Origin: an uncultured virus (IMG/VR IMGVR_UViG_3300030333_006991)
Taxonomy: Duplodnaviria > Heunggongvirae > Uroviricota > Caudoviricetes
DNA: 64,000 nucleotides
Direction: 5' to 3' (one strand)
Virus record (IMG/VR): IMGVR_UViG_3300030333_006991
Position numbers and translations under genes: made by a program. Positions 3,202 through 44,927 of this stretch are shown in pieces (position 1 is the stretch's first letter; the number at the start of each line of letters is the position of its first letter). The notes beneath the pieces were generated by a model that searched no databases, was not told the DNA's origin, and saw only the letters and a list, made by a program, of their open reading frames with translations.

Positions 3202-3924
3202 ATGAGTGTGAGTGCAGAAAAGTGGAAGGCATATCCAAAAGAAATTATCCCTGCTTACGAGGTTTGGAATCTCAAGCAGATTGGAAACATGGAATCTTTT
3301 GACTCCGCTTTTATGTGGAGTCGGCCCAAAACTTTTACAAAAGGAGAACATATCGAAAAATACTTGCGCCATCTCAACGAAAGAGTAAGCAGTATGGTAG
3401 CAGATGATGGGTTTGTGTATATTGGTGTTCAATGGGAGAAAGGAAATTACAAATATGCCCCTCGATTTTTCCGTTTCAAATACAGTGACTTGCCAAAAGG
3501 GGAGGACTTTTTCATTATCGTGAAAGATAAGTGGGGCAATCAGCAACTTTCTGTTCACGCAGGTCTTGATACTTGGATAGTGCAAGAAAATAGGAGACAA
3601 ACTTATAGCGGCAGGAATCAAGGAAGATACTCTGCTCACAAAAGTCATCAACAAGCACAGAATCTAATGAATAAGTTGATGTCGGGACAAACTCTGACCA
3701 CAAAAGAATTGGAATTATTGCAGAACCCCACACATCAAGAACCTGCTGTCGCCTTTATCAGAGAGATGGAAGCAGATAAAAGGCCGAAATGGAATGTGAA
3801 TCTCTCTAAATACTATCGTCAAAGTAAACATAGGGCTTGCTTGAAGATTTTCAAACCCTCCGAAGCAGAAGTTGTGCGTAAAATTGACCTCGGATTGCTC
3901 AATTGGATTAACTTATCAATCTAA
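3202..3924 (+). CDS. Hypothetical protein with C-terminal GLLNW motif
   Basis: Ends ...DLGLLNWINLSI*. Confidence 0.7.
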   Translation: MSVSAEKWKAYPKEIIPAYEVWNLKQIGNMESFDSAFMWSRPKTFTKGEHIEKYLRHLNERVSSMVADDGFVYIGVQWEKGNYKYAPRFFRFKYSDLPKGEDFFIIVKDKWGNQQLSVHAGLDTWIVQENRRQTYSGRNQGRYSAHKSHQQAQNLMNKLMSGQTLTTKELELLQNPTHQEPAVAFIREMEADKRPKWNVNLSKYYRQSKHRACLKIFKPSEAEVVRKIDLGLLNWINLSI

Positions 3925-3973
3925 GCAACAGTTTATAGCATAGTAGGCACTTGTAAAAGTAGGTTGTGTGATT

Positions 3974-4354
3974 ATGGCTAAAAAGGAAAGTGTAATTTCA
4001 GAAGATGAAGCAAAAGAATTGATTGAAGAAACGCAAGAGGCTGCTGACGAAGCAAAGGAAGCGGCAGAAGCAGTTACATCTGCGGCAGAAGAAATTGCCG
4101 ATGTAAAAGATGCGATTGCGGAAAAGGATATTTCTAAAGCAGTTGAAGAAGCAAAAGAGGCTATTGAAGATATTGAAGCAGCCGTGGATGAAGTAGAAGA
4201 TGCGATTGATTCTGCTACTGAAACTGCTAACTCTGCTACTCAATTGTTGAATAGAGTAAAAACAAGGTGGGCTCTTTTAGACCGCAACGGAAAAATCATG
4301 GCCGTTATCTCGACTCTTGCTGTTTTGTCTGCTGTGGCTTACAATTATGTTTGA
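3974..4354 (+). CDS. Acidic coiled-coil protein with C-terminal transmembrane anchor
   Basis: A/E-rich helical repeats, then IMAVISTLAVLSAVAYNYV*. Confidence 0.7.
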   Translation: MAKKESVISEDEAKELIEETQEAADEAKEAAEAVTSAAEEIADVKDAIAEKDISKAVEEAKEAIEDIEAAVDEVEDAIDSATETANSATQLLNRVKTRWALLDRNGKIMAVISTLAVLSAVAYNYV

Positions 4355-4358
4355 TTAG

Positions 4359-5192
4359 GTGAACACTGTGTCTTTTGGGCAACCTTTAGAAGATGCAGTA
4401 GTGTCTAAATTAAAAACTGTAACGGGGAATCAAGCAGGATGGGTATATCCTGTTTCAAATGTAGGTCTTTTGCTTGCTATTCCCATTAGGAAATGGAAAC
4501 GCATAAAGCCGTTCTCGGAATGGCAAGCCAATTTTCTCAGTGAATCAGGACCTATGGTGCAAGGAAATACGGTGAAAAGATTTCGTTTCTCTTTACCGAA
4601 AGGTATGAATCTCGATTCTTCCATTACCAATAATGATAATAGAGCAAGGATAAGAGAAGCGATGGTAAAAAATCAAGTAGGTTCAATTCGTAAAAGTAGT
4701 CCTCGACCTGAAAAAGATTACTACACTTCAATCAACAAAAGTGAACGAGTCGTCACTAATCAGCCGTGGCCTAATCCCTATCAACAATCTCGTTATTCTC
4801 CTAACAATTACAATGCTTCAAGCAATAGCACTTATTGGAATCATCCTGAAGAGTTTAAGGCACATTCACCGTGGGGAAAGGAAACACCTGACGATTACTA
4901 CCGCCAAGTAAGAGATTATTGGCCTCAGCAAAATGAGTTTCTTGTGGATTTAGATATTTCAACTGTAAATAGTTTGATTGACGGGCAGCAACGATTAGGT
5001 TTTCACGCAGAAGGGAGTGAATGGTTGGTTTTACTTATTGACTATCATCTTTTAGCAGGATTGAATAGTTACGACACAAAAGTAGAGCCTGTTTCATTTA
5101 CACCTCGATTCTCACATTTCAAACCTCAAGTGGATTTCTTTGGTATTCTCAATTGGTTGAGCCTCGGCTCACTTCCAAAAAGTCCAAAATGA
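4359..5192 (+). CDS. Hypothetical protein with C-terminal GILNW motif
   Basis: Ends ...FFGILNWLSLGSLPKSPK*. Confidence 0.7.
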   Translation: MNTVSFGQPLEDAVVSKLKTVTGNQAGWVYPVSNVGLLLAIPIRKWKRIKPFSEWQANFLSESGPMVQGNTVKRFRFSLPKGMNLDSSITNNDNRARIREAMVKNQVGSIRKSSPRPEKDYYTSINKSERVVTNQPWPNPYQQSRYSPNNYNASSNSTYWNHPEEFKAHSPWGKETPDDYYRQVRDYWPQQNEFLVDLDISTVNSLIDGQQRLGFHAEGSEWLVLLIDYHLLAGLNSYDTKVEPVSFTPRFSHFKPQVDFFGILNWLSLGSLPKSPK

Positions 5193-6967: not shown

Positions 6968-7453
6968 ATGAGCAAAGTATTTCGATTGCCATTTGAACGA
7001 CTTGGAATCCTGAATTGGGGTAAAGGCGGGCTTGATTGGAGGAGTAAACAATTCCATAATATCCCGCTTGAAAAGCGACCTGACTACCTTGAGTTAGCCG
7101 TGCAAAGATTTGAAGACCACTACAATAGTAGTGCGGGTCATGCACGATATGGAAATGCGAAATTCCGCCTTGTAAAAGGTCGGACAATGGCTAAACTACG
7201 AGTTAGCGAAGGAAATCAGCGTGAAAGGATTTACGCTTTTATAGACATCAATATGAAAGACCCTGAACGCTACGGTGGCATGATGAAACCCGCCACTTAC
7301 AAAGCCCCTGAACCGAAGAAATACATTCGGGCGCACCTGTTTGGAAAAGACCCCTTGCGAGGGGCGACATGGTATGGCCCTGAGTATTACGATGGTGGAA
7401 AGGGTGGTAAGTCGGGCTCAGATTGGTTCCGTGGTGGGGGTCTGAGTGTATGA
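6968..7453 (+). CDS. Conserved phage-type hypothetical protein with N-terminal GILNW motif
   Basis: IYAFID...MKPATYKAP...IR pattern recalled from small phage proteins; LGILNW at residues 12-17. Confidence 0.65.
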   Translation: MSKVFRLPFERLGILNWGKGGLDWRSKQFHNIPLEKRPDYLELAVQRFEDHYNSSAGHARYGNAKFRLVKGRTMAKLRVSEGNQRERIYAFIDINMKDPERYGGMMKPATYKAPEPKKYIRAHLFGKDPLRGATWYGPEYYDGGKGGKSGSDWFRGGGLSV

Positions 7454-8256
7454 GTTACAAATTAAGCGAAAAGGAAAGAGCCCGATACGAGCGACAGATA
7501 GGTGTTGTTGAGCGTTTGAGGAATCGCTTGCCTGAGGAGTTTCGGGTGGGTGATGCCCGAAATGGTGAAATAGACGCAGGACCATACAAAGAGGTAGCAA
7601 CTCTATTTATTCCGCAACTTCTTTACGAGTATCAGGTTCTTTTAGAGAATATGCTAATTCCTGCTCCGTGGGATTATGATAAGAAACCTTCTTGGTGGTT
7701 GTATAAAAGAATGACTGATTTCCTCACCAACAATCCCAAAGAGGCTCCCTTTGTTAATTGGTCTTATCTTTTACACAGTGCGATGTATGGCGAAGTAATT
7801 CCTGATGATATGAGAGATGAACAATATTTCGTTTGGAATAAACTCTTTGCCCAATTGCTTCATATTACAAGACCCATACAAGATTGGTTTAACCTGCAAT
7901 CCACCCGAATCAGTGAGGAATCTTACATTAGTAAGATTTCGGAAAATCCAAACCTCTTATTTTGGAGTTTTTCTCCTTCTTCGGATTGGAGAGAGCAAAG
8001 ATTGGAGTTAGTTTGGGAAGATTCTTTGATGAAAGAAACTTTTTGGATTTCACTTGAGAGTAAAGTGGGTGGGTCAGTGAGATTCCGATTTTATGGTGAT
8101 GAGGATGACGAAGAGTGGGAAGAGCCTGATGATGACGAAACACAACTTTTCACAGATTGGTCTTCCATAGTAAAGAGTTGGGGGGAGCCCTTTTGGATGG
8201 CCGTCATACCTTTGAATGATTTAACACAGTTTGGTTTATTGAATTGGGAGTGGTAA
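7450..8256 (+). CDS. Hypothetical protein, C-terminal GLLNWEW
   Basis: ATGA overlap with the previous gene; ends FGLLNWEW*. Confidence 0.75.
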   Translation: MSYKLSEKERARYERQIGVVERLRNRLPEEFRVGDARNGEIDAGPYKEVATLFIPQLLYEYQVLLENMLIPAPWDYDKKPSWWLYKRMTDFLTNNPKEAPFVNWSYLLHSAMYGEVIPDDMRDEQYFVWNKLFAQLLHITRPIQDWFNLQSTRISEESYISKISENPNLLFWSFSPSSDWREQRLELVWEDSLMKETFWISLESKVGGSVRFRFYGDEDDEEWEEPDDDETQLFTDWSSIVKSWGEPFWMAVIPLNDLTQFGLLNWEW

Positions 8257-8257
8257 A

Positions 8258-9031
8258 ATGAAAAAATACGATTTGACTTTTGGCCCGTTCCAATACCCTG
8301 ATATGGACAAGTCCAAAAAAGAGGCTAATTTCTATGGGCGATATGCAGATTATTTGATAAAGAAAGGGTTTATTCCTTCTTTGTCGGATTCTATTGGCGA
8401 GGGGCGTGATATAGTGGGTCCTGAAATAGCATCTACGGATTTGAAAACAGGACACTTTTACATCAATTACGAAGAATTTGATGGGGGAGGGGGTATTTTT
8501 TCTTTAGCCTACATCAACAACATAGATGCGACAGATTGGGGGATAGAAAACGAGGATGGTAGGAGAATTTCTCTTCAACCTGAAGGAAAGCATCGCATCG
8601 GAATTATCCATCTTTCCTTTCCGTGTCTTAGAAAACTTTCTCAACTCTTAGAAACGGCTCAGGAATGGTCGCTTAAAGACCCAAGTTTACGAAGAGATAC
8701 TGATTTCGTTCAACAAGACGATTGGTGGCCGTTGGTAGATTATTCTTCCATGACCGAAGAGGAGAGGGCAAAAGTGCTAACAAAACTTTTACACAAAATA
8801 GAAAACCACAACGATGACCCGCATGGTTGCCGAATCGGTTGGATGCCTGTTACAGGATTACAATACATGGAAGAATGGAAAGATTTACCTCAAGAGATTG
8901 TAGATGATTTACTTTCAACCCACAAAGATTACTACGGTGATAATGGTCACAAATTCTATGAAATCAATATCCCTCCTTTACGGAGAGTTTACGGAACGAG
9001 CGATTACGGTTTGTTAAATTGGTGGTGGTAA
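8258..9031 (+). CDS. Hypothetical protein, C-terminal GLLNWWW
   Basis: Ends DYGLLNWWW*. Confidence 0.75.
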   Translation: MKKYDLTFGPFQYPDMDKSKKEANFYGRYADYLIKKGFIPSLSDSIGEGRDIVGPEIASTDLKTGHFYINYEEFDGGGGIFSLAYINNIDATDWGIENEDGRRISLQPEGKHRIGIIHLSFPCLRKLSQLLETAQEWSLKDPSLRRDTDFVQQDDWWPLVDYSSMTEEERAKVLTKLLHKIENHNDDPHGCRIGWMPVTGLQYMEEWKDLPQEIVDDLLSTHKDYYGDNGHKFYEINIPPLRRVYGTSDYGLLNWWW

Positions 9032-9032
9032 A

Positions 9033-9860
9033 ATGCACTATATCATGGATGAAGAAGGGGAAAAGGCCATCGCAGAGTTGCTGACTCGTTTCCCACCTGA
9101 TATACCCTCATTCCCCTCAGTGCTTGGAATACAACGAAGTGCTATATCTACAACAAAGGTGATTCCAATGTTACAAGCCATGTTACAGGCTCCCGAAAAC
9201 TTCAATGAATGGTTATGTGATAATATTGGTATCAAAGATTCTTACAGCCGTGGTATGGTTCTCAATCCGAGGTGGAAGAAATATCGTGGCGATAATAAAT
9301 GCCAACTTGTGAGTCGAATCCACGAATCAAAGTTTGCACAAAAGATAGAACATCCTAATGGCCCTAACCGTATTTACCACAATGAAGATAGGTTAAGGTC
9401 GAAGCAGGGATTGATGCTTGACTCCAAACATGGGTGGTGGTTCCCTAAACATTTGGAAGGTCGTCCTGATAAATTGTATTGGATTTTGAAGTTATATCCG
9501 ACTGAGGAACGGGCAGACGGGGGAGGTGATGATGATTGGAGGATGTGGAAAATAATTCTTTTGTGGCATGAAACAGGTATAGGCACTTCAACCTTAGAAG
9601 ACCTTGAAAATCATCAGGCATGGGTGGTGTGGATTGAAGGTGATGAATCGTGCGGAGGGAGAAACGATGGGAGGTCATCTGTTTTTCATGTAGAGAAAGC
9701 AGGTCCTTTTGCATGGAGAAGTATTCGGAATAACCAATTAAACCCTGAAGCGATGGCAGAAATATCAAAAGAAAATAGTGTAATTACTTATGCAGGTGCT
9801 TTTGATTTACTCTCAAGTGGGAAGAATCAAGATTACGGTCTTTTGAATTGGAGGTGGTAA
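9033..9860 (+). CDS. Hypothetical protein, C-terminal GLLNWRW
   Basis: Ends DYGLLNWRW*. Confidence 0.75.
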   Translation: MHYIMDEEGEKAIAELLTRFPPDIPSFPSVLGIQRSAISTTKVIPMLQAMLQAPENFNEWLCDNIGIKDSYSRGMVLNPRWKKYRGDNKCQLVSRIHESKFAQKIEHPNGPNRIYHNEDRLRSKQGLMLDSKHGWWFPKHLEGRPDKLYWILKLYPTEERADGGGDDDWRMWKIILLWHETGIGTSTLEDLENHQAWVVWIEGDESCGGRNDGRSSVFHVEKAGPFAWRSIRNNQLNPEAMAEISKENSVITYAGAFDLLSSGKNQDYGLLNWRW

Positions 9861-9862
9861 AA

Positions 9863-10537
9863 ATGCGGTATGACCTTCGATATGATGCACCGCTCCCTGT
9901 TTTGGGTTGGGGCCAAGTTATGAAGGAGATAGAGCGAGATTTCGTGCTTGAAATCGTTAATCCCTTCATTAACGATAAAAACTTAGGCTCCGCAAAGATG
10001 ATGAAAACTCTTTTAGACGAAAAATTGTCGCCCTTCACAGCCCACTTTTTTAGTCCACTTTCTTATTTGAAAAAAATTGAGCAATTAGAGAATCCTATCT
10101 TTTGGGTGATTACCACTAAACCGTTGTCGGGTATCTATGAAAAGGAATATCCGAGAGAGATTTCTTGGGGGTTTATCATTCCAAAAAATACGGCTGATAT
10201 TACTGCCCATGAAGTAATCATTGATTGGCGAGGCAGCCTTAGGTGGTCCGCTCCGAAAAACCTACTTGAAACAGGAAAGGTTTGGGTTGTAGACCCTTAT
10301 GAAAATGCTGATGCTATCATTTTGGGACAGATAATGGATGAGTCGCATGATTCTCAAGAGCATTTCAACAATTTGTGGGAGAACAGGGAGACAAATGGAT
10401 ATTGGACACGACATAATTTCGGTTATCCGAAAGTGAACCAAAGCACACAATACAAATACAATTCTAAAATGTTAGTCGTGCCTTTAGGAACACATGAGTT
10501 TACTGATACTTTGGGTTTATTGAATTGGGAGTGGTAA
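9863..10537 (+). CDS. Hypothetical protein, C-terminal GLLNWEW
   Basis: ATG 9863 follows GGAGGTGG; ends LGLLNWEW*. Confidence 0.75.
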   Translation: MRYDLRYDAPLPVLGWGQVMKEIERDFVLEIVNPFINDKNLGSAKMMKTLLDEKLSPFTAHFFSPLSYLKKIEQLENPIFWVITTKPLSGIYEKEYPREISWGFIIPKNTADITAHEVIIDWRGSLRWSAPKNLLETGKVWVVDPYENADAIILGQIMDESHDSQEHFNNLWENRETNGYWTRHNFGYPKVNQSTQYKYNSKMLVVPLGTHEFTDTLGLLNWEW

Positions 10538-10538
10538 A

Positions 10539-11579
10539 GTGAGTGAGAAACCAACTAAAATAACTTCAACAGATTTCCTTGACCCTCTTTCGGCTGATAT
10601 GAGGCTTACTCAGCAGTTGATGGAACAACTTCCCGCTTCTCGTAAACAGCAAAGATTGAAAAATAAATCTGCCTTTTTGTATGTTCAATTTTTTCAACAA
10701 TGTAGAAAGCAAATGAAAAATTGGCTTAGTAGTGGTTTTATCTTCAAAGAACCTGAAGTGATACTTCATCCTGAGCGATGGGCCGAGGCTGAGAAGTTTA
10801 CTTTAAGCCAAGAATTTTATCAAATACAAAGTCATGGAGATGTAAATGAAACTCCTCGTAAGGCTCTTTTACAGAGTGCGATTCTACGATGTAAAAGTGT
10901 TCCATTTGAGTTAAACTTAGAACAGTTGGCTCCATATCAAACAAAAGAAGAAAGAATTGAAAACACAGCCTTTTTACCGAAAGATAAGGTAGAAGTATTG
11001 GAAGATTGTCTCAGACGGATAGAAGTGTTCAATCGAGATTTCAGCACAAGAAATCCTTCCGTATGTGTGTTAAAGGAATTCCGACCACGCATAAGGAAAG
11101 AATTAAAGGAAAGTGTATACAAGGATTACGATGGAAGTCCTGATATTCATAGTTTCCGAGGGTCACTGACCATGACGGTATGGTTTTTAACAGCCCGAAA
11201 AACATTCTTTCAAGTGAAAATGGAGTGGAAAAGCGAAAACAATCAAGTGCGTTACACTTTTACAGAGCATGACTCACACCATCTTATAGGTCGTTTCTGT
11301 GATAAATATTTTAACTATCTTCAAGAGCAACTTCGTTATCAAACGAGCCTTGCAGAGAAAATTAACAATGTGGAGGACGATTGGAAGGTCATGGGGGGTG
11401 ATGATGATGATGATGAATGGAGTTTTGAAAGTTTTCTTTTGCCGATTAAGGAACAAAGTGATAAATATTGGGATGAAGCGCATGAACGACAACATTACCC
11501 GTGGAGACAATGGCCTCGGATTCTTCAAGTGCGGCCTGAAAGAGGTGGCTTAGGCTTGTTAAATTGGTTCCAATTGTGA
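10539..11579 (+). CDS. Hypothetical protein, C-terminal GLLNWF
   Basis: Ends LGLLNWFQL*. Confidence 0.75.
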   Translation: MSEKPTKITSTDFLDPLSADMRLTQQLMEQLPASRKQQRLKNKSAFLYVQFFQQCRKQMKNWLSSGFIFKEPEVILHPERWAEAEKFTLSQEFYQIQSHGDVNETPRKALLQSAILRCKSVPFELNLEQLAPYQTKEERIENTAFLPKDKVEVLEDCLRRIEVFNRDFSTRNPSVCVLKEFRPRIRKELKESVYKDYDGSPDIHSFRGSLTMTVWFLTARKTFFQVKMEWKSENNQVRYTFTEHDSHHLIGRFCDKYFNYLQEQLRYQTSLAEKINNVEDDWKVMGGDDDDDEWSFESFLLPIKEQSDKYWDEAHERQHYPWRQWPRILQVRPERGGLGLLNWFQL

Positions 11580-13360: not shown

Positions 13361-14251
13361 ATGCCTTATCAATCTCTTAGTGTGGAACAAGGTGATTTGC
13401 AGTTACAAACAGGTAGTGAAATTATTCAAGAGTTTCAAGACGCTTTGATGGACTCAACAATCATCACTATACCTGATGAACCTTCAGACACCACAGGCGT
13501 ATGGTTGCCTGAATATGTGGTATATCCTTACAAAGAATTAGACGAGTTTTCATTTCCTGTGTCGGTAGAATACAAAGATGAATTAGACGGCTCTGCACTC
13601 AATCGAGATATGAGAAAGAAAAAACCTGATGTCCGAGCAGTTTTGACCGCTTCATTAGCGAATAAATCCGAAGATTGGGAAGACGACCCATTCACAGGTC
13701 CGAGAGACAGAATTGAGTATACTCTTCGCTTTTTCACAAACGATAAAAGAGAATCAAGTGCGTATAAGTGGGAACCCACAGAAACCTTCCTCGATATTAT
13801 TCCTAAAGGAATGATGGAAATAAATGAATTAAGTCCTGAAGGTCGGGAAGCAAATAAATCGTTACGAGAGATGACGGGTGATTTTCAAGGAGGTAAAATG
13901 ACTCCTTATCTGAAAGATACTTTCACAATAAAAAAGAGTTATCAGAGGAACAGTAGGGGAAAAATGGTGTTGGTAGAATCACGCCCTTACGATGGAAGCA
14001 AGCGTATGGTTCATACCGAAATATCTTTCCCACCTCATAATACCCCTTTAACGAGGGAGGTATTCAAATCTGTGATGAATACGGAAAAGGATGAAAAAGA
14101 GGTCTTTGAAATGCAAAATCTCTACACATATCAGAATCCTACTACGGGTTCTTCCCCCCGATTTGTATGGGTTCCTCGGAAAATTACAGGATTGCTTAAT
14201 TGGGTTTCCCTGAGAGGAAGAGGGTTTTCTAACACTGAAAAGGAGATGTAA
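13361..14251 (+). CDS. Hypothetical protein, near-C-terminal GLLNWVSL
   Basis: ITGLLNWVSLRGRGFSNTEKEM*. Confidence 0.7.
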   Translation: MPYQSLSVEQGDLQLQTGSEIIQEFQDALMDSTIITIPDEPSDTTGVWLPEYVVYPYKELDEFSFPVSVEYKDELDGSALNRDMRKKKPDVRAVLTASLANKSEDWEDDPFTGPRDRIEYTLRFFTNDKRESSAYKWEPTETFLDIIPKGMMEINELSPEGREANKSLREMTGDFQGGKMTPYLKDTFTIKKSYQRNSRGKMVLVESRPYDGSKRMVHTEISFPPHNTPLTREVFKSVMNTEKDEKEVFEMQNLYTYQNPTTGSSPRFVWVPRKITGLLNWVSLRGRGFSNTEKEM

Positions 14252-14255: not shown

Positions 14256-16415
14256 ATGGCAGACCTATTTGGGACTAAAGGGTTAGGCGGATTCGCCTAT
14301 TACGATAGAATGCCCGATTTAGGACGGCCTACTTCTGCTGACTCCGACCAATCAAATATCGCTGCACCTTTCGTAGTCGTATTCGATAAAAGAGGGGTGC
14401 GAAGTATCGCTAATGTCGGCACGGATATGGAAGAAAATCAACAAGGGATAAGCCCTCAAATGAAGATGTCTAAAAGTAAATCAGATATACATTATTTTTT
14501 CATCTTTTTACGACCCACCCAAGCGAGGAAAGCGGAACAATTATGGCTTGATGCCGAGTATTGTGACCTTTACGACTACCTAAAAGAAATCGCTCTTACT
14601 GAAGAAGGGGCTTTTGGGGGGGAAGAGGGAGAGGAATATCCACTTCAAGGAAGCATTAAACACAAATCGTGGAAACACAATGTAGGTGCATGGTTTGTAG
14701 AAAAAGACATCCGAGCCACAGAAGCCGTTATGCAGATTCATTGTGAGCCTGAAGAAGAAGAAGAACCTGAAAAGCCGTCTTTAGGAAGCCTTAATTGGGT
14801 GAGTTTTAGTAGCGAGAATAAAGTGCAAGGTCGGATTGGTCTATTTGGACATGAGTTTTTAGTTTGGGGAGCAAGAGATGGTAGGAGTCGAGTGCTTGGC
14901 TATCCTATGGAGGATTGGATTTGGGATGAGGGAGAATTTGAAGATAAAGAAGAATATATGGAGTTTATACGCCAAGTAGAACAGTTTGGAGCGTATTCTC
15001 TTCACCATGAGATATGGGATGACGAGACAGAGGAGTGGGAATACATAGACAGCATCACAGGAATCGTCCCAAGTGTGGATTACGACCTCATCCAAGCCGC
15101 CCATGAGTTTTTCGATTTGAAAAATCCGATTCTTTTAGGTGGAATGAATTGGATTTCTTTGCGAGCCGAAGATTTTCCTGAAGATGAAATAGGCTTGTTG
15201 AATTGGCGATGGGATGGTTGGAACAGATTGGATGATGAGGATGATTGGCTCCAAATGTGGGAAGATTGGGATTGGGACGATGATGGGTTTGAGAAAATAC
15301 ACACTCCAACCCCTGCTGCGGCTGCGGCTGCTGAAACATTCCAAGCCTACACTATTGGCGACACCTATACTGCTGATGAGGTGTATGAAATTGCTTCTTC
15401 AAGTCAAATGAGAGGACCGCAAAGTTGGGATTATCAACATTATGAAAATCCTGAGGATGACCGTTTGTTGAGAAGCATTCTGCGAACCCCTGAATGGGAA
15501 ATCATCAGATTTGATGAAAGAGTATTGAGGGAAAAACCTATCACTCATGCTGATTGTTGGATTGGGACATTCTATTGGCCTAAACCTATTCGTAGTAACA
15601 CTCCTATCGTTATTCAAAATGGAACCGTAGTTGATGGAAACCATCGTTTAGCGTCTGCTTTGACTTGGGGGCAAAGTGTGTTAGCATTTGTCCCTAAAGG
15701 AGAAGAATGGTGGATTGAGTGGTTCGATGAGGATGAAATGAAAGATTGGAATGATGAGTTGGATGAATTGTTAGGCTCAAGAACACAATCAGGCGTAAAC
15801 TCTAAATACTCCTCCCGAAGTGGGACTGATGTAGAGGAGTTTAGTGTGCCGTTCATAGATATATCAAATCAAGATGCTGATGGCGTTCCAACAGAGGAAA
15901 TCATTTGTGTAGACCATTTGTATCATGGTCAATATTCAATGGGAGGTGAAGAGATTACGGCTCACAGTCCTTATTGGTCGCCTAATCTCGATTTCGCTTT
16001 AGGTCACGCTCTTTTCGGAGCCGAATTAGAGAAAATGGTTCCTGCAACTCGTTGTGAATACTGTTACGAAGGGTGTGATAAGTGTGAAGAGGGGTGGGTG
16101 CTTCTGAATCGAGAAACAGACGATATTATCCCTCAAACAATGCCTATGGTTCTTCAACTTAATTTCGATACCGAAGAAGAGATTTGTTTCGCTCAAGATA
16201 TAGAGCATGAAAAGGGGCAATCCTATGTTCTTTACGGAGAATCTTCGGGATGGGAAATAGTCCCATCAAATCAACTGATTCCAATTCTTGAAAGATGGCT
16301 TGAAGACGAGGAAATACCTGAAGATATTCTTTTCGACACAGGAGCAGGATATGTTTCCGATGACCGAATTGTATGGAACCGAGTGGAACAAGCGATTCAA
16401 CAACTGCAAAATTAG
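14256..16415 (+). CDS. Modular acidic protein: three internal GxxNW motifs, ParB/Srx-like domain, possible ART-like and Zn-ribbon module
   Basis: GSLNWVSF, GGMNWISL, GLLNWRW; PIVIQNGTVVDGNHRLASA; LYHG...YWSPNLDFA; CEYC..GCDKC. Confidence 0.65.
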   Translation: MADLFGTKGLGGFAYYDRMPDLGRPTSADSDQSNIAAPFVVVFDKRGVRSIANVGTDMEENQQGISPQMKMSKSKSDIHYFFIFLRPTQARKAEQLWLDAEYCDLYDYLKEIALTEEGAFGGEEGEEYPLQGSIKHKSWKHNVGAWFVEKDIRATEAVMQIHCEPEEEEEPEKPSLGSLNWVSFSSENKVQGRIGLFGHEFLVWGARDGRSRVLGYPMEDWIWDEGEFEDKEEYMEFIRQVEQFGAYSLHHEIWDDETEEWEYIDSITGIVPSVDYDLIQAAHEFFDLKNPILLGGMNWISLRAEDFPEDEIGLLNWRWDGWNRLDDEDDWLQMWEDWDWDDDGFEKIHTPTPAAAAAAETFQAYTIGDTYTADEVYEIASSSQMRGPQSWDYQHYENPEDDRLLRSILRTPEWEIIRFDERVLREKPITHADCWIGTFYWPKPIRSNTPIVIQNGTVVDGNHRLASALTWGQSVLAFVPKGEEWWIEWFDEDEMKDWNDELDELLGSRTQSGVNSKYSSRSGTDVEEFSVPFIDISNQDADGVPTEEIICVDHLYHGQYSMGGEEITAHSPYWSPNLDFALGHALFGAELEKMVPATRCEYCYEGCDKCEEGWVLLNRETDDIIPQTMPMVLQLNFDTEEEICFAQDIEHEKGQSYVLYGESSGWEIVPSNQLIPILERWLEDEEIPEDILFDTGAGYVSDDRIVWNRVEQAIQQLQN

Positions 16416-19590: not shown

Positions 19591-19959
19591 ATGGAACAGA
19601 TTAACAATCCTTTCAGTAATTTAGGACCTATGGTTCTTTTAGGAGCGGTAGTAGGGTCTGTGGGTGCAGAAATTGTTGCCCCTCACGCCTATGGTTTACA
19701 TCTTTTTCAATCCACATATATGACTTTGGATGATGGTTCTCGCATTCATATACACCATTGGGTGTGGGCTCTAATGGGGATGGGTCTTTACGCTATCCGA
19801 CCTTTTACGACTCGATGGCTTAATTCAATGGTCGTTGGGGTTCTTTTAGGAATATTTGCACAAGGAGTTTCCTACTCTACAAGTCACTTGATGCTTTACG
19901 ACCCTGAGGGTTTCCGTGACTATCGTGCGGAGACAGTAGGGGGAGAGGCTCATGGTTGA
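19591..19959 (+). CDS. Small membrane protein (HIHHW motif)
   Basis: Three hydrophobic segments; GGAGAGG RBS. Confidence 0.6.
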   Translation: MEQINNPFSNLGPMVLLGAVVGSVGAEIVAPHAYGLHLFQSTYMTLDDGSRIHIHHWVWALMGMGLYAIRPFTTRWLNSMVVGVLLGIFAQGVSYSTSHLMLYDPEGFRDYRAETVGGEAHG

Positions 19960-20533
19960 AGCGGAAGACATTCATTTTTCTCGTAAAGGAGTGTTGAATT
20001 GGTGGGCTCAAGATGAGTTGGCTGAGTTGATAAGAGAAACAATGATTTCCAAATTGAGAGAAGGGCCGTTGCCCCACATAGAAGATAGAGCATACATTAA
20101 GCAAAGTCATGCAGACGCATTAGTGGAGGCAGAAAGGTCTTTGGAGGAAGAGTATCGTGCATGGTTCGATGCAAATGTGAGAGTGACCCTTCCTGAAGTA
20201 GTGTCTTCAACCGTAAGGCTAAAAGATGGCACTCCTATCAGTAAACAGTATCGAGGACGCATCAAAGCGAGAGTGCCTCTTTATGATGGCAACCTTGATT
20301 CCGTTTACTACCAACTATTCCAAAGTTTATTGAAATTAGAAGGATATTTTTCTGTGAGGACAGGCTCATACGGCACTTGGAGTATGGAAGTAGTCGCAGA
20401 AGGAAAAAGTAATTTTCATATAGGACAAGAGGTTCAAGATGAATCAATTTATTGGGTTTACGAAGCCGAGAAGGAGGGCGGATTTGGAAGTTTGGGGGAT
20501 TTATTCGGAGCGGAGAATGAGGTGAGGAAATGA
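19952..20533 (+). CDS. Hypothetical protein, N-terminal GVLNWW; paralog of 21539
   Basis: HFSRKGVLNWW...EYRAWFDANVRV...VPLYD. Confidence 0.7.
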   Translation: MVEAEDIHFSRKGVLNWWAQDELAELIRETMISKLREGPLPHIEDRAYIKQSHADALVEAERSLEEEYRAWFDANVRVTLPEVVSSTVRLKDGTPISKQYRGRIKARVPLYDGNLDSVYYQLFQSLLKLEGYFSVRTGSYGTWSMEVVAEGKSNFHIGQEVQDESIYWVYEAEKEGGFGSLGDLFGAENEVRK

Positions 20534-25739: not shown

Positions 25740-25814
25740 ATGAGTTTAGGACTTCTAAATTGGTGGGGTTATCTTGATGACTCAGAACCCTTAATCGCCC
25801 TTTTGCGAGGATAA
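25740..25814 (+). CDS. 24-aa micro-ORF consisting mostly of the GLLNW tag
   Basis: MSLGLLNWWGYLDDSEPLIALLRG*; GGGGAGGGG RBS; starts 2 nt after the previous stop; not in the ORF track. Confidence 0.6.
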   Translation: MSLGLLNWWGYLDDSEPLIALLRG

Positions 25815-25851
25815 AGTAGTGTTTATACGGTTAATGGCGGCATAAAAGGGT

Positions 25852-27721: not shown

Positions 27722-28372
27722 ATGGTTAAGGATTACTACTACTTGGAATACCATGATGACGCTAAAAACAGTCATAAATTCTACATCGGTTTAGAAACTG
27801 ATGCCGATATAGGTTTACTTGCTTGGGGGCGTATTGGAGGAAGAGGACAATCAAAAGAGGCTTCAAGGAAATTAGTGGCTAAGATGATGAGGGACAAGTT
27901 GAAAAAGGGGTATGTGGACAAAACGGACGAAATGCCTCAATATCTCAAAGATTTGTATTTTCCGAAGATGAGTAAAATCCTTGAGTTGTGGGGTCGGGAG
28001 AACGGGCAGAGTAAAATGCGAGAATATGCGTGTGGATTTGGAGATACTTACAATCACATGGAGGCCCCCATAGATGAGAATGGAGAATATGAGTTTGAAA
28101 CCTTATGTGTTAAGTGGGACGAACATGGTAATGTCTTAGATATTATCATTGTGGCAGACCCATCAGGAAAAACACGAAAACCAACAATTGATGATTACAG
28201 ATACATTGTTAAAAGCGGTCAATTTGATAATTCTTATTTTGATTACAAACGGAATTACGAGGAAGAGAATCGAGGGCATTGGATTGATAATCTCATGGCA
28301 TATATTCAAAACAGGGCAAAACCTCGTTTAATGAACCGTTACGGACTGTTGAATTGGTGGAATTTTCAATAG
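27722..28372 (+). CDS. WGR-domain protein with C-terminal GLLNWW
   Basis: YLEY..NSHKFY...AWGRIG..GQ...KLKKGY; ends YGLLNWWNFQ*. Confidence 0.8.
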   Translation: MVKDYYYLEYHDDAKNSHKFYIGLETDADIGLLAWGRIGGRGQSKEASRKLVAKMMRDKLKKGYVDKTDEMPQYLKDLYFPKMSKILELWGRENGQSKMREYACGFGDTYNHMEAPIDENGEYEFETLCVKWDEHGNVLDIIIVADPSGKTRKPTIDDYRYIVKSGQFDNSYFDYKRNYEEENRGHWIDNLMAYIQNRAKPRLMNRYGLLNWWNFQ

Positions 28373-35228: not shown

Positions 35229-36866
35229 ATGACTTGGCATCCTATTCATATCAAAATGGATGTGATTGCACCTATTGAGTTGCATCCTCCAAATCAAGAC
35301 AGTTTCACGACACGGAATTGGGATAGGCCGATAGTGACGCCACACCCCACAGAGTTTCAAGTAGCAGGACTTGATATGGTGGAATGGGTAAAAAAGATTT
35401 ACACCACTTCACCCAACGGGTTCGCTGCACGATTCCGATATATGATGAAGGACCGTTATAGTGAGGCACACGGGTTGAAAGGTCTTGCTATGAATTGGAA
35501 GTGGGAAACTTCTTCCTCCAAAGACACCGTAAGAAGTCGTATGCACTATGTTGATGCCGACCCTGATGATGAAGATAATACCGATGTGGTGGGTTATCTT
35601 GTTCCCGAAAAATTATGGGAGTGGGATGGACAATCTTATCACTTCGATGGTAAACACCCTTTGACTGAGATAAAGTCAGAAGGAGAATTATCAGATGAAG
35701 AGTGGGAATCGTGGGTTAGTTTTGACGCCCTCATGCAGGTTCAAGAGTTATGGAAAATGCAAGAAAACCTGCACAAGAGCGTTCCTGAGGCTCACATTAT
35801 TGGATATTACAATCCTTTACTTCTTGATATTGCCAAGCGTTTTCCTGAAATAGGGATGCCGCTTTCTGAATGGCATATCAGCAAAAACAAGATAGGAGAT
35901 AAATACCACCCACAATTATCAGCAAACGAGGAAGTCAATAGAAAAAACATGGCTCTCCTTTTCCATAAAATTGTGTCGGCACTTGAAAGACGCAAACCTT
36001 TCATCATAGTGGATGTATCAATTGATGGATTGAGAGTTGCTAACGAGCAAATTGACCATAGAGATTATGATGGTAATTGGGAATCATCGGAAGTAGTAGG
36101 AAGACGGATTAAATTATGGAATAAATATGATGGAAATTACTTCGGTTTGAAAATGTATAGGAAAAGTTTTGGCCCGCACATGACTTTAGATTCATTAGAA
36201 AATAAAGATGGCTATGCTATCAACCCGCTCAAGACAGGTTATGTGAATCACACCGCCATATATTTTCCTATTTACACTGTTACCGAAGAGGGTGAACCTT
36301 GTATTTACATTTCCGCAATAAGCCGAGATGAGAAAGGACGACTCGTAGACCAATTGGCTTGGGGTCCATATTTCCCTAAAAGAATGGCAGCGAGTATTGA
36401 AGTAGATGCTGCTGCTCAACAGATGGTTGAAATGGGAGCGTCTATGGCCGTAGGAAGTAATGAGGCTCCTGAATACATGGTTGATGCTTTGAAAGCCGCA
36501 GGATTAACGACAGGAGAAGATTGGCGGGATGAAGTAAAGCAAGATTACGAAGAAAGTATCGAATATATTGTAAAAGAGGTGTTCTTTCCTGATGTATGGT
36601 CAGGATATGATGTGAAGCAATTGAATATCAGAGCCATGATGCTAAGACAACAAATGGAGAACAAAAAAGTAGATAGCAGCAAACTAAAAGAAATGTATGA
36701 CCAACAAACTTTCAAAAAATACAAGTTTCCGAGTGAAGAACCCTTGATGGAAACCCCTGCCGAGGAATTAGGATTTGAGATGTTCGATAGAAATGGAGTA
36801 AGTTACCAAATGGGTATTTTCGGGCGGCCTGAAATGGGACTTTTGAATTGGGATTTCCGTTTTTGA
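35229..36866 (+). CDS. Hypothetical protein, C-terminal GLLNWDF
   Basis: Ends EMGLLNWDFRF*. Confidence 0.75.
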   Translation: MTWHPIHIKMDVIAPIELHPPNQDSFTTRNWDRPIVTPHPTEFQVAGLDMVEWVKKIYTTSPNGFAARFRYMMKDRYSEAHGLKGLAMNWKWETSSSKDTVRSRMHYVDADPDDEDNTDVVGYLVPEKLWEWDGQSYHFDGKHPLTEIKSEGELSDEEWESWVSFDALMQVQELWKMQENLHKSVPEAHIIGYYNPLLLDIAKRFPEIGMPLSEWHISKNKIGDKYHPQLSANEEVNRKNMALLFHKIVSALERRKPFIIVDVSIDGLRVANEQIDHRDYDGNWESSEVVGRRIKLWNKYDGNYFGLKMYRKSFGPHMTLDSLENKDGYAINPLKTGYVNHTAIYFPIYTVTEEGEPCIYISAISRDEKGRLVDQLAWGPYFPKRMAASIEVDAAAQQMVEMGASMAVGSNEAPEYMVDALKAAGLTTGEDWRDEVKQDYEESIEYIVKEVFFPDVWSGYDVKQLNIRAMMLRQQMENKKVDSSKLKEMYDQQTFKKYKFPSEEPLMETPAEELGFEMFDRNGVSYQMGIFGRPEMGLLNWDFRF

Positions 36867-36875: not shown

Positions 36876-37901
36876 ATGGTTGTTAAATCTGCTACTAAAA
36901 AGAAACTCATGGATTTGGGTGTGTATGAGTATCACGCTCATCTTTTAGCCGATGACCGTAAGTGGGACGATGTAAAGAAATTATCTATCTTGGATATTGG
37001 AACAATTATCTTTGGCGATATGGATGTGGCTTCTGCCAATGCAGATGATTGGCTATCCAAAGGAGAGAAGATATTCTATCTCATACATCCGTATAGACGA
37101 CCTATTCCTAATCCTCCACCTACAAGAAAGAAATTAGGTATATTGAATTGGTGGTGGGGAGAAGGTAACGAATCGAGTTTACTTGATAGAGGGGTCGAGG
37201 ACATCTTTTACACGCTTCTTACTGATAGTGTGGGAAGGGCGTCAATAGATGTGGATGACGATGTAGAACCTCCTAATGATTCATCAATGGATTTGTGGTT
37301 CAGAGAAAATATTAGGGAAGACACTATTCTCTTCTACATGGAAAACAGGTTCAGTAGTTTAGCCGAGGAGCGGCACTTTGTTAAAAGGAAGGAAGGAATC
37401 AATGACCATGTTCGCCACAAGAAATTGCATGACTCAATAGCAGAGAAAATTGGAAACGATGGGTGGAGTGAGAGCATTTATTCGTTACTCGCCCTGATAA
37501 TCTTGGAGTGGGATTCTCTTGATTTGAGCAAACCGTTTATGCTTATCCCAAGTGAGGAGGTTATGAAGTGGCTTGTAAATTCTTTTGTAGAGGGCTTGAA
37601 TAAGGAGGTCGAAGGTTGGGAAGCGAAGATAAAATACGAGATGTTCTCAACTGAGCAGCCCATAGGTGATTTCATCAACCCTGAGGTGATTAAACCTGAG
37701 AATTATGAAACTCCTTCATACAAGGTCGTAGGAATAAGAACGACAGATGGTAAAAAGAAGCAAAATCTGTTAGTTTCATTCAATAATTTGTCTTCTGAAG
37801 GTTATTATTGTGTTTCCCCTTTGATGAATGCGTGGGCTGCACACTATTGCTCTCAAAGATGGCCTGACTTGTGGAAGCAATTCTTACATTTGGAGGGATA
37901 G
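36876..37901 (+). CDS. Chimeric protein: N-terminal host-like segment, Pro linker, internal GILNWWW, unknown domain
   Basis: MVVKSATKKKLMDLGV..HLLADDRKWDDVK; PIPNPPPT; LGILNWWWGE. Confidence 0.7.
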   Translation: MVVKSATKKKLMDLGVYEYHAHLLADDRKWDDVKKLSILDIGTIIFGDMDVASANADDWLSKGEKIFYLIHPYRRPIPNPPPTRKKLGILNWWWGEGNESSLLDRGVEDIFYTLLTDSVGRASIDVDDDVEPPNDSSMDLWFRENIREDTILFYMENRFSSLAEERHFVKRKEGINDHVRHKKLHDSIAEKIGNDGWSESIYSLLALIILEWDSLDLSKPFMLIPSEEVMKWLVNSFVEGLNKEVEGWEAKIKYEMFSTEQPIGDFINPEVIKPENYETPSYKVVGIRTTDGKKKQNLLVSFNNLSSEGYYCVSPLMNAWAAHYCSQRWPDLWKQFLHLEG

Positions 37902-38809
37902 TGTTGAGAGAAAACTGTAAAAAAGAGAGGACTCCTAAAGCAACCTTTGTTTGGGAATGTGAATCTGAAGTAGAGCAAGGAGGCTCTATGGGGCTTTTGA
38001 ATTGGGATTGGGATAATTCAATTCCCATTACGCAATATGAAGGCGGGATTTTGGCTGCTTACGAGGATGATAATTGTTGTAGTAATTCTATGGGAATGGT
38101 CTTAGAAGAGGCGGTAACAGAGTTGTATAATTTTCACTATGAACAACAAGGAGATTCTCATGCACCTTTTCCTTCGTGGTTCCCCAAAGAATACCTTCCT
38201 GTTATGGTGGATTTAGAAAGGTTTGAAAGAGCGTTCAAAGAGAAGGAGAGAATTCCATCACTATCCGACTATCACCCACACCGAGAGTTGTTTCCTGTAT
38301 GGGATTCAGAAGACAAATATTTGGATTGGGTAATCATACCCTCGCTCCCATACGATACGGAGCCCTATCCTTTAATGATGGAAACTTTGGAGGGATTAGG
38401 TGAGTTGGGACGGAGGAATCGAGAAAATTTCCTTCGGCACTTTGATTTTACGGATGATATGCTTAACATGGAAGGAGCGGTTGGTGGAATAGTGCTTCAT
38501 GTGGAAGTCACACCCACCAAAACGAGTTACAACGATTTCCCTCAAGATGATGGTTTTTTTACTGTGGCTCCCTCACGGTTCCAGCGTGTCGAGCCTGTAA
38601 TCAGAGTGATTTTCCTTGATGAAAACCGTGAACGGGTAGAGAATGAAGAAATAGTATGGATGGCTCCGTATTTTTCTTATTACAAGGTCGAAAAGCGACA
38701 ATGGTGGCTCCCTGTTTTAGTCAAGATGTTCGCTCCTTCTTTGGGAGCATACAAAAGATGGGCCTTCAAACATCTCCCTTATGTTTTGGAAGAAGGATAT
38801 TCCGTCTAA
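37901..38809 (+). CDS. Hypothetical protein, N-terminal GLLNWDW
   Basis: GTG 37901 or ATG 37988, both with GGAGG; the latter gives MGLLNWDW. Confidence 0.7.
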   Translation: MLRENCKKERTPKATFVWECESEVEQGGSMGLLNWDWDNSIPITQYEGGILAAYEDDNCCSNSMGMVLEEAVTELYNFHYEQQGDSHAPFPSWFPKEYLPVMVDLERFERAFKEKERIPSLSDYHPHRELFPVWDSEDKYLDWVIIPSLPYDTEPYPLMMETLEGLGELGRRNRENFLRHFDFTDDMLNMEGAVGGIVLHVEVTPTKTSYNDFPQDDGFFTVAPSRFQRVEPVIRVIFLDENRERVENEEIVWMAPYFSYYKVEKRQWWLPVLVKMFAPSLGAYKRWAFKHLPYVLEEGYSV

Positions 38810-43449: not shown

Positions 43450-43459
43450 TTCTTATAGT
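43450..43459 (+). promoter_or_regulatory. TTCTTATAGT promoter motif
   Basis: 42 nt upstream of ATG 43492. Confidence 0.7.
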
Positions 43460-43491
43460 CCTTCCGCCACTTTACGGTGAGAGTGACGGTT

Positions 43492-44082
43492 ATGGTGAAA
43501 ATACAGTTGCTTGATGAAAACCCGTTTGTGACTAATTTCAAACAAAGATGCTATGAAATATGTGTTTTTTACAATCACACTCCTTCAGATGAAAAATTGG
43601 ATGACCCTACTTTTTTGATGAAATTGCCTGAAGGGTGGAAAAAAGATGAAGAAGAACAAGGTTTATTCACCTTTTTCTATCATAATATCCGACAATTGGA
43701 TTGGAATAAGTTGAGTATTCCTAAATGGGAAATGGGCGCAGGTTGGTGGTTATTGAAAGGTTTGGAGGGGAATAGAGACAGATTCTTTTTGCTGTGGATT
43801 TACCCCTTTACGATAGATTTAGAAGGTTATGATGATTATGAAATTGAAACTTTGATTTACTACTACGCACCTTTACATATCAGCAACAAAGGCACTAACT
43901 TGGGATTCCAAAATTTCACATTGGCTAACGAAGAAAGACCGAATTACGGTTATCTGTGGGAGGATGGAGATGGTTGGGCTAAAGGTAATGCCCAATGGCG
44001 AGGTATATTTTTAGGTAAAAACGGACGCTCTCTCCCTACACCGAAGCCTCCTATGTTGAATTGGATAGGGTGGGATTTCTAA
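43492..44082 (+). CDS. Hypothetical protein, degenerate C-terminal PMLNW motif
   Basis: Ends GIFLGKNG...PPMLNWIGWDF*. Confidence 0.7.
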   Translation: MVKIQLLDENPFVTNFKQRCYEICVFYNHTPSDEKLDDPTFLMKLPEGWKKDEEEQGLFTFFYHNIRQLDWNKLSIPKWEMGAGWWLLKGLEGNRDRFFLLWIYPFTIDLEGYDDYEIETLIYYYAPLHISNKGTNLGFQNFTLANEERPNYGYLWEDGDGWAKGNAQWRGIFLGKNGRSLPTPKPPMLNWIGWDF

Positions 44083-44927
44083 TGAAAAAGGAAGAGTTTG
44101 ACCCTGTAAAAATATCATCAAGAATCTATGAAAAACTCAAGATTCATCATTACAACTTGACGGGTTTCTTAGGCTACCACCAAGATTTCGACCTCGGTAT
44201 CAACGAAACAATAGATACCTTTGAAACAGGGATTTCAGAAATAGAGAGAGAAACAAAAGGTAATTATGATTGGGCGGGAGAAACCGACAGTAAATGGAGT
44301 GACCTATTACCCTTTGTGGAAGAGAATTGGAAAAATCTCTCAATTTTGAAAACCGTTGCCGAGAATGAAAGTTTTAGCGGTCACAATGATTTCTTAGATT
44401 TATCAGCCCAAAACCTTCCTTCTACGGACGAAAGTGGTGAACCACTTTTCCCTTACTATGAGAAAGAAGAATTTGCCCAACTTGTAGACCCTGAAAAAGA
44501 CATAGGATGGTTTTTATTCATACCGAATTCGGTTAGAGACAACCTTACCCCCGACAATCATCATAAGTTGATTAACCGACAAGGAATATACTTTCCTGAT
44601 ACTCATTTTGGTATCTTTTATGTGTTCTTTAATTGGAATACGGAAGAATGGCATTATGGAGGGTGGTATTTTGCTACTCCGCCTGAAATATCGAATGATG
44701 CTTCAGCACTTGATATGTGGGGTTCTCCGAGGTTTCCTTTTAACCACTTCAATTGGTATGGCGCATGGATAAATGAACCTGAAACAACTATGCCGTGGAG
44801 GAATGGAGAGAATTTCCATGTAGCAGGAGGAGGCTTTTACTTAGGTCCTAATGCCGAGATATTACTTGATTTACAATCTACTAAACAGTTAGGAATATTG
44901 AATTGGTGGACATCTTTACAAAAGTAA
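44082..44927 (+). CDS. Hypothetical protein, C-terminal GILNWW
   Basis: TAATG coupling; ends GFYLGPN...LGILNWWTSLQK*. Confidence 0.7.
   Translation: MKKEEFDPVKISSRIYEKLKIHHYNLTGFLGYHQDFDLGINETIDTFETGISEIERETKGNYDWAGETDSKWSDLLPFVEENWKNLSILKTVAENESFSGHNDFLDLSAQNLPSTDESGEPLFPYYEKEEFAQLVDPEKDIGWFLFIPNSVRDNLTPDNHHKLINRQGIYFPDTHFGIFYVFFNWNTEEWHYGGWYFATPPEISNDASALDMWGSPRFPFNHFNWYGAWINEPETTMPWRNGENFHVAGGGFYLGPNAEILLDLQSTKQLGILNWWTSLQK

Follow-up and report, generated by a model that had tools for sequence, protein, structure and literature searches.

Why should a large set of dissimilar proteins, encoded side by side in one viral genome, begin or end with the same five residues? The question is raised by a 64,000-nt stretch of DNA (the window) from an uncultured virus assigned to the Caudoviricetes (IMG/VR record IMGVR_UViG_3300030333_006991), in which an initial annotation had noticed a recurrent G-[LIVF]-L-N-W peptide (the tag) and proposed that it is a portable docking peptide that loads a variable set of effectors into the virion or recruits them to one hub protein. 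We found that selection acts on the peptide itself, that it has been deployed at the N termini, at the C termini, and in the linkers of proteins (carriers) from about 25 sequence families, and that its parallel alteration in a relative points to a single reader. We consider it likely that the tag is a short linear docking peptide, specific to this lineage and read by one partner.

Occurrence and placement of the tag

A scan of the six-frame translation of the window with the pattern G-x-[LM]-N-W recovered 24 sites, all on the plus strand and each in frame with a long open reading frame (ORF), and none in the three minus-strand frames; mononucleotide shuffles of the window (n = 100) averaged 0.1 matches for each six-frame translation and never exceeded 2. 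The 24 sites coincide with the 24 Gly-codon coordinates listed by the initial annotation, and there are no others. A curated set of 65 plus-strand ORFs of the window holds 23 of the sites in 21 ORFs, and the remaining site lies in an ORF of 24 codons. Tagged ORFs are confined to the region from 3.2 to 45 kb, where they account for 21 of the 44 curated ORFs, versus none of the 21 elsewhere (Table 1).

Within their proteins, the sites are concentrated at the ends: 18 of the 23 lie no more than 15 residues from a terminus, versus 2.5 expected under uniform placement within the same proteins, and a count of at least 18 was reached in none of 100,000 simulations of such placement. The terminal enrichment that had been proposed as a check is thus evident, whereas the accompanying tally of 13 C-terminal, 8 N-terminal, and 2 internal occurrences had to be revised. 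Our recount gives 22 ORFs with 24 sites, comprising 12 ORFs tagged at the C terminus, 7 tagged at the N terminus (including the 24-codon ORF), a single ORF with its tag at residue 41, and two whose tags are internal, namely, a 719-amino-acid (aa) protein with three tags and a 341-aa protein with one at residue 88. N-terminal tags that begin exactly at residue 4 (M-S-[LY]-G...) occur three times in the window and 13 times in its relatives (see below), and C-terminal tags approach the stop codon to within 2 residues; in all curated tags, at least two residues follow the Trp and at least three precede the Gly. These margins suggest that the tag is placed as near a free end as a unit of about nine residues permits. 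Two degenerate copies had also been pointed out, of which the one near 23892 (SLLNW, inside the 350-aa carrier) is not kept in orthologs, while that near 44050 could be a decayed tag.

Retention of the tag in rapidly diverging proteins

Related sequence was drawn from five metagenome loci (L002 to L006, the window being L001), about 55 kb in total, found via homologs of the carrier with a WGR domain. These loci are syntenic with the window; their core genes (Mom, RNR, PCNA, and ERCC4) are 53 to 96% identical, and the carriers are 25 to 55% identical. Between the window and L002, the corresponding values are 34 to 55% for carriers and 77 to 95% for Mom, RNR, PCNA, ERCC4, and a 90-aa ORF. Carriers thus diverge faster than core genes. 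A check for homologs lacking the tag found that every ortholog examined keeps it: 6/6 for the WGR family, 4/4 for the 979-aa protein (as GLFNW in L004 and L005), 2/2 for the 545-aa protein (including the L002 ortholog), 5/5 for the 341-aa family, and 2/2 for the 312-aa protein. In all six WGR orthologs, the domain is followed by a linker that varies in length and sequence and then by the tag, and tag-adjacent linkers of other orthologs likewise differ in both respects. The distant relatives have Phe or Met for Leu at position 3, which extends the motif to G-[LIV]-[LFM]-N-W. With Phe allowed, ORFs of at least 80 aa considered, and an internal GEMNW of RNR excluded, tagged ORFs number 7 of 14 in L002, 3 of 7 in L003, 14 of 25 in L004, 7 of 16 in L005, and 1 of 3 in L006.

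Carriers have also been gained and lost between relatives; an extra N-tagged gene is present in L002, and the 24-aa ORF at 25740, which had been counted as a carrier, does have the tag but is the deletion remnant of a longer N-tagged gene. At the scar, which spans 25740-25851, only 16 codons from the start of this gene survive; intact copies are present in L002 (231 aa; 577-1272) and L003 (260 aa; 1877-2659).

Selection on the peptide rather than on the DNA

That selection targets the peptide had been claimed from the synonymous spread of its codons, and this spread is as described (Gly as GGA, GGT, GGC, or GGG; Leu as TTG, TTA, CTC, CTT, CTG, or CTA). Of the differences between orthologous tag codons, 61 are synonymous and 32 replace the residue conservatively, always at position 2 or 3; the Gly, Asn, and Trp are unchanged in all ortholog comparisons, while the 10 residues upstream are identical at 147 of 420 positions. 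The DNA pattern GGNNTNYTNAATTGG has 22 plus-strand copies, each of them the in-frame tag, and none on the minus strand. Synonymous turnover, invariable placement in frame, and retention where the flanks diverge together establish that it is the peptide that is selected.

The contrary explanation, that the motif is a nucleotide-level element of gene borders (a promoter, a recombination boundary, or a device of translational coupling), draws on the position of the motif at such borders and on the invariance of its AAT-TGG: all 24 tags encode Asn by AAT, a codon that accounts for 67% of Asn overall. However, the other Asn-Trp pairs of window genes are also AAT-TGG (19 of 19), every xxC-TGG codon pair is absent from window genes, and the 64 kb contain 3 copies of CTGG where 174 are expected; the AAT invariance is therefore due to genome-wide avoidance of CTGG and is not specific to the motif. 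Changes at third codon positions and switches between TTR and CTN codons for Leu also speak against a DNA signal, as does the distance to the neighboring gene start, which ranges from 10 to >1000 nt. One further observation lies on the side of such a signal. At the junctions of the five tandem C-tagged genes (8242-8258, 9017-9033, 9846-9862, and 10523-10539), the final codons are TGG-GAG-TGG, TGG-TGG-TGG, and TGG-AGG-TGG, and these can be read as Shine-Dalgarno-like GGAG, GGTGG, or GGAGG just 5' of the next start, so that the x-W ending is dual coded.

Kinship of the carriers and structural context of the tag

When the tag was masked, the 53 carriers of the window and its relatives fell into 26 families by BLASTP and 25 by phmmer. 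BLASTP among the window proteins recovered a single link, between the 193-aa and 244-aa carriers. In addition, there is a multigene family whose proteins are tagged at the N terminus and end in a W-[IV]-C...N-R-[IV] motif, with a variable region in between; in the window it includes the Cys-rich 442-aa carrier, the C-terminal part of the 341-aa carrier, and the remnant at 25740. The initial description of the carriers as mostly dissimilar therefore stands at the level of about 25 sequence families, but they are less independent than had been claimed, with two window pairs being paralogs and one multigene family in the set.

In an AlphaFold2 model built on the alignment of the WGR family, the domain has predicted local distance difference test (pLDDT) values of 72 to 80, whereas the linker and tag (residues 81 to 105) fall below 50. 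A model of the N-tagged family, likewise built on its alignment (predicted template modeling score, 0.68; mean pLDDT, 74.7), has values below 50 for residues 1 to 13, which include the tag; comparison with solved folds gave no match (Foldseek, E of 2.7 at best; VIA-align, Z of 3.9 at best). The low confidence of the tag segments outside the domains suggests that the tag is an appendage and not a core element, and on these models it is predicted to lie outside the folded domains. We accordingly rejected, at the level of sequence, the candidate explanation of one homologous family with the motif as its structural core: the one real multigene family that carries the tag is in its favor, but the tag-masked carriers form 25 to 26 sequence families and the tag is outside the confident fold in both models. 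Some of the orphan carriers may still be kin at the level of fold.

A concerted change of Leu to Phe

Phe occupies position 3 in 12 of the 14 tags of L004 and 2 of the 7 of L005 versus none of the 24 in the window (Fisher, 3e-8 for L004 versus the window). Over 14 ortholog pairs of L005 and L004, Leu or Met is replaced by Phe in 4 of 5 tags, versus 11 of 405 aligned Leu or Met residues elsewhere. Unrelated carriers would be expected to change in parallel if they shared a receptor whose specificity had shifted, and this comparison of sequences thus points to a single reader.

Functions of the carriers and nature of the element

Almost all of the carriers are orphans with respect to Pfam, PHROGs, NCBIfam, and the ESM Atlas. 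The 216-aa carrier is, as annotated, a WGR protein, with a match above the Pfam threshold; the 161-aa carrier, which had been taken for a common phage-type protein, has only subthreshold matches to DUF7717 and phrog_818. Short carrier forms (149 to 156 aa) match SAP at 21.4 to 21.7 bits, below the Pfam cutoff of 23.9, and an HhH-like N-terminal domain in the 341-aa family is a by-eye reading with no Pfam match. The ESM Atlas gave nothing usable for the 979-aa and 257-aa carriers, tblastn searches of phages with the 979-aa and 161-aa carriers were negative, and a PDB sequence search with four ORFs gave nothing below an E of 0.4. In keeping with the initial annotation, PCNA, RNR, ERCC4, UvdE, GT, and the ArsA/Get3-like ATPase of the window lack the tag. 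No carrier has a predicted transmembrane segment, and a role as a membrane anchor was rejected on this ground, the invariant Gly and Asn arguing for a stereospecific reader; an N-glycosylation sequon was rejected in that Ser or Thr is rarely found two residues after the Asn.

The 719-aa multi-tag protein has no Pfam match. Its relatives P0015, P0016, and P0024 have three to four tags in acidic linkers, and P0016 (880 aa) contains an insert with a DUF5872 match of 27.1 bits (cutoff, 27.5) and, by eye, a ParB-like D-G-x-H-R.

The element is probably a large virus of marine archaea, to judge from its PCNA homolog and the records with which it clusters. Searches with this PCNA by tblastn in a phage collection recovered only nine records, all of them tailed viruses of haloarchaea and methanogens, and contigs in the cluster records of the group, from marine-type sources, reach 165,862 bp. 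RNR matches in GTDB are about 35% identical and scattered across Thaumarchaeota, Woesearchaeota, Nanoarchaeia, and one bacterial metagenome-assembled genome, and so we make no host call; GTDB genomes yielded no relative of the tagged WGR protein. The C-terminal LLFNWF of PCNA was considered as a tag and rejected, since relatives have F-E-W-F at this place and it aligns with the conserved C-terminal strand of PCNA.

Several untagged neighbors deserve mention. A MoxR/dynein-like protein of 1,314 aa, which matches AAA_5 and AAA-lid, precedes an orphan of 1,001 aa for which the PDB sequence search gave no match, and a conserved 158-aa protein with a lipoprotein-like signal start (...LMAGC) is 55 to 86% identical across four relatives. 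The genes at 3968-4354, 39268-40497, 40434-41960, and 42529-43449 comprise three tail-anchored-looking proteins (each with a single hydrophobic segment at the extreme C terminus) and, near them, an ATPase of the ArsA/Get3 type that is full length (ArsA_ATPase in Pfam, with an E of 1.8e-63); a factor for the insertion of tail-anchored proteins may be encoded by the virus alongside its clients.

TABLE 1 Tagged ORFs and other features of the window (site numbers are window positions)
Feature	Coordinates	Strand	Length (aa)	Tag	Remarks
Carrier	3202..3924	+	240	C-terminal GLLNW, 3892-3906	5 residues before stop
Carrier	4359..5192	+	277	C-terminal GILNW, 5142-5156	11 residues before stop
Carrier	6968..7453	+	161	N-terminal GILNW, 7004-7018 (residue 13)	Weak DUF7717/phrog_818 match 3' of tag
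Tandem carrier, 1 of five	7423..8256	+	277	GLLNW-EW-stop, 8233-8247	
Tandem carrier	8258..9031	+	257	GLLNW-WW-stop, 9008-9022	
Tandem carrier	9033..9860	+	275	GLLNW-RW-stop, 9837-9851	
Tandem carrier	9848..10537	+	229	GLLNW-EW-stop, 10514-10528	
Tandem carrier	10539..11579	+	346	GLLNW-FQL-stop, 11553-11567	
Carrier	13361..14251	+	296	C-terminal GLLNW, 14189-14203	15 residues before stop
Multi-tag protein	14256..16415	+	719	GSLNW, 14784; GGMNW, 15138; GLLNW, 15192	Tags in acidic linkers
Carrier	19952..20533	+	193	N-terminal GVLNW, 19988 (residue 13)	Paralog of 21539-22273
Carrier	20991..21542	+	183	N-terminal GLLNW, 21006 (residue 6)	
Carrier	21539..22273	+	244	N-terminal GILNW, 21569 (residue 11)	L004 orthologs: GLMNW, GLFNW
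Carrier	23361..24413	+	350	N-terminal GILNWWWGE, 23370 (residue 4)	
Carrier, Cys-rich	24410..25738	+	442	N-terminal GFLNW, 24419 (residue 4)	Member of W-[IV]-C...N-R multigene family
Remnant (MSLGLLNWWGYLDDSE...)	25740..25814	+	24	25749	Rest of N-tagged 231- to 260-aa gene
Carrier, WGR domain	27722..28372	+	216	C-terminal GLLNWWNFQ, 28343	
Carrier	28439..31378	+	979	C-terminal GILNWWGSLT, 31346	
Carrier	35229..36866	+	545	C-terminal GLLNWDFRF, 36837	
Carrier	36876..37901	+	341	GILNWWWGE, 37137 (residue 88)	HhH-like N-domain and Pro-rich linker before tag, family C-domain after it
Carrier	37871..38809	+	312 (longest ORF)	GLLNWDWD, 37991 (residue 41)	Residue 31 in L002 ortholog
Possible decayed tag	43477..44082	+		PPMLNWIGWDF-stop	Gly absent
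Carrier	44061..44927	+	288	C-terminal GILNWWTSLQK, 44892	
DNA methyltransferase fragment	191-850				
Conserved lipoprotein-like protein	25852-26328		158		
Mom-like gene	26612-27433				
PCNA homolog	32468-33226			None	
AAA_5/AAA-lid protein	56308-60252		1,314	None	MoxR/dynein-like
Orphan	60283-63288		1,001	None	

Avoidance of palindromic tetranucleotides

The window is also unusual in its tetranucleotide content. ACGT, AGCT, CTAG, GATC, and GTAC are absent from its 64 kb (229 copies of each expected), as are CCGG and CGCG (111 of each expected); CCAG occurs 7 times versus 146 expected, and GCGC occurs 24 times versus 111 expected. All seven of the absent palindromes are likewise missing from the five relatives (about 55 kb), whereas they are present, at 0 to 124 copies each, in two unrelated phage loci that bear Mom. 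This pattern is extreme restriction-site avoidance. It is accompanied in the window by a Mom-like gene and a DNA methyltransferase fragment, and the element shows signs of a heavy arms race with restriction systems.

Searches for the tag in other genomes

A tag-profile search of a word-indexed set of 5.8 billion proteins listed 11 proteins at E ≤ 10. All seven of those examined carry the tag, and the listed proteins are tied to this virus group by identity, shared contigs, or a WGR match. The exhaustive search of 1.84 billion representatives gave four matches at E ≤ 0.001, namely, three translations of tandem repeats and P0015, the relative of the multi-tag protein. Neither profile search recovered a significant tag outside this virus group, with the limit that a single tag scores only about 24 to 27 bits and other occurrences could escape. 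IMG/VR returned nothing for three carrier or WGR protein queries or for a DNA pattern encoding G-x-L-N-W-W-W-G-[DE]; a Mom query there led to three untagged loci, which have nothing in common with the window except Mom and a distant RNR. Full-text literature searches for the peptide itself gave nothing relevant.

What the tag may do

Selection on the peptide, its portability, its predicted location outside domains, and the shift indicative of one reader are all in favor of the docking peptide initially proposed, the destination of which may be the virion or a hub. The minimal unit would consist of some nine residues, x-hydrophobic-G-[LIV]-[LFM]-N-W-x-[W/hydrophobic], displayed on the disordered ends or interdomain linkers of a large, variable, and fast-evolving set of accessory proteins, all of which would plug into one common receptor site and so be gathered at one place.

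The general idea of a shared terminal peptide for targeting or docking is already known from the capsid targeting sequence (CTS) of phage T4, from clamp-binding tails, and from the peptides of encapsulins and bacterial microcompartments (BMCs). The T4 CTS is known only from N termini, from which the head protease cleaves it, and no more than a handful of proteins use it. As described in PMC3012670, the internal anti-restriction proteins of T4 are diverse and fast evolving with only the CTS in common, and this sequence addresses proteins to the prohead scaffolding core and is portable to foreign proteins. The likeness to the tag lies in such a set of proteins sharing only a short terminal peptide; the difference is that the tag occurs at N termini, at C termini, and in linkers on 21 ORFs in 42 kb, being C terminal in 12 of the 22 carrier ORFs, and neither a protease gene nor a conserved cleavage motif was recognized in the window. 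Loading peptides of encapsulins and BMCs occur at either terminus. PMC12339742 and PMC11866011 describe such encapsulation and cargo-loading peptides as joined by disordered linkers and as directing unrelated proteins into a protein shell. The tag shares with them the flexible linker and the use of either end, but theirs are helices of about 10 to 20 residues or GSL-type peptides that adjoin a shell gene, and the sequence motif is unrelated; no encapsulin (HK97-fold) or BMC (BMC-H/BMC-P) shell family was found among 69 window ORFs scanned with Pfam. What is notable here is the use of both ends and linkers, on about half of the genes of a region, in an archaeal-type setting, with a concerted shift.

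Our leading guess as to the destination, a tentative one made by analogy with T4, is the interior of the virion, where the carriers would be internal proteins, or proteins ejected on delivery of the DNA. The T4 internal proteins, together with the signs of a restriction arms race, incline us slightly toward it. In its fullest form, which is possible but falls well short of probable, the tag would be a virus-encoded addressing code, a nine-residue label that loads at least 20 fast-evolving effectors, many of them DNA binding, into the particle so that they are delivered along with the genome, the 719-aa protein being a multivalent organizer. Several points weigh against the docking and virion readings. 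In the window, which covers 64 kb of an element of roughly 166 kb, Pfam, PHROGs, NCBIfam, and the PDB sequence search disclosed no capsid, portal, scaffold, terminase, or protease, and no receptor for the tag was identified there; capsid and replication genes may lie in the other ~100 kb. Several carriers look DNA binding (WGR, the subthreshold SAP, and the by-eye HhH), which a DNA-bound hub fits as well as packaging does. The tag has spread in part via paralogy (the 193-aa/244-aa pair and the multigene family), five of the 23 sites are nonterminal, the evidence for the concerted shift comes mainly from L004, and related sequence for comparison amounts to only about 55 kb.

A DNA-bound or replication hub is a destination that we consider almost as likely as the virion, given the DNA-binding carriers and a spacing like that of the PIP box. 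Stated specifically, the same peptide would be read by the PCNA-type clamp of the element, another ring, or a host replication protein, which would tether a tool belt for DNA binding and processing to viral or host DNA; we hold this to be rather doubtful. Clamp-binding tails are found on partners of archaeal and eukaryotic PCNA and on gp43, gp33, and gp55 of T4, which bind gp45. According to PMC6881253, PIP motifs occupy disordered N or C termini or linkers, as the tag does by its placement and in both AlphaFold2 models, and a Gln at position 1 inserts into the Q pocket. Both are short hydrophobic/aromatic motifs of unrelated proteins that would converge on one hub, a PCNA is encoded in the window, and multi-tag proteins would suit a multimeric ring; the carriers include WGR, SAP-like, HhH-like, and Cys-rich proteins, the last two being by-eye readings. 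A PIP box has a hydrophobic residue at position 4 and aromatic residues at positions 7 and 8, and the tag has a similar spacing in part, with L, I, V, or F at position 4 in 21 of 23 tags and Trp at position 7 in 23 of 23, but Trp at position 8 in only 8 of 23 and Gln two residues before the Gly (PIP position 1) in just 2 of 23. The invariant Gly and Asn are foreign to the PIP box, about half of the genes in 42 kb would be far more clients than are known for clamps, and most carriers have no recognizable DNA-related domain. Archaeal XPF-type nucleases usually have a clamp-binding tail, yet the ERCC4 nuclease of the window is untagged. PIP boxes bind a pocket at the interdomain connector loop of PCNA. 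Cofolding of the viral PCNA with the tagged tail of a short WGR protein (residues 66 to 105), run without controls, scored 0.22 against a mark of 0.32, a value that counts on neither side of the question of binding.

Other readers than a clamp or a packaging scaffold are less easily accommodated. SspB-type adaptors bear a terminal ClpX-binding peptide, and their layout of domain, linker, and tag resembles that of the carriers, which might accordingly be adaptors or substrates docking on the MoxR-like protein of the window, a 1,314-aa AAA_5/AAA-lid protein, or on host PAN, Cdc48, or Lon, the tag being an unfoldase/protease handle or degron for target delivery or scheduled clearance. We find this unlikely: among window proteins that have ATPase or protease domains, none is tagged or has a sequence that imitates the tag, no observation links the tag to the ATPase, and linker tags are atypical of degrons. 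Head proteases of adenoviruses, poxviruses, and giant phages trim propeptides and cut precursors, and the tag recalls the sites of such processing in being short and strict, in lying close to either end or within the linkers of multidomain proteins, and in always having at least two residues after the Trp and three before the Gly. That a maturation protease trims end propeptides and cuts multidomain precursors here is nevertheless quite improbable, as no protease was recognized in the window (Pfam, PHROGs, and NCBIfam), the loss of 2 to 5 residues from nine proteins would serve no obvious purpose, and five invariant or nearly invariant residues with their flanks exceed the usual needs of a protease; the Leu-to-Phe shift fits both this and a docking peptide. 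A DNA-level border element or the core of one divergent family is, on the evidence set out above, largely refuted and highly improbable.

Implications

If one receptor does read the label of this docking peptide, about half of the dark-matter genes of the region would constitute one functional set that could be studied jointly, and finding the reader would yield the destination of more than 20 proteins at once. Being short, usable at either end, and predicted to lie outside folded domains, the tag could also serve as a portable targeting handle. Should the addressing code hold true, then, together with the tetranucleotide avoidance and the Mom-like gene, it would make up an unusually elaborate counter-defense package and would be the first described cargo-loading system of an archaeal virus.

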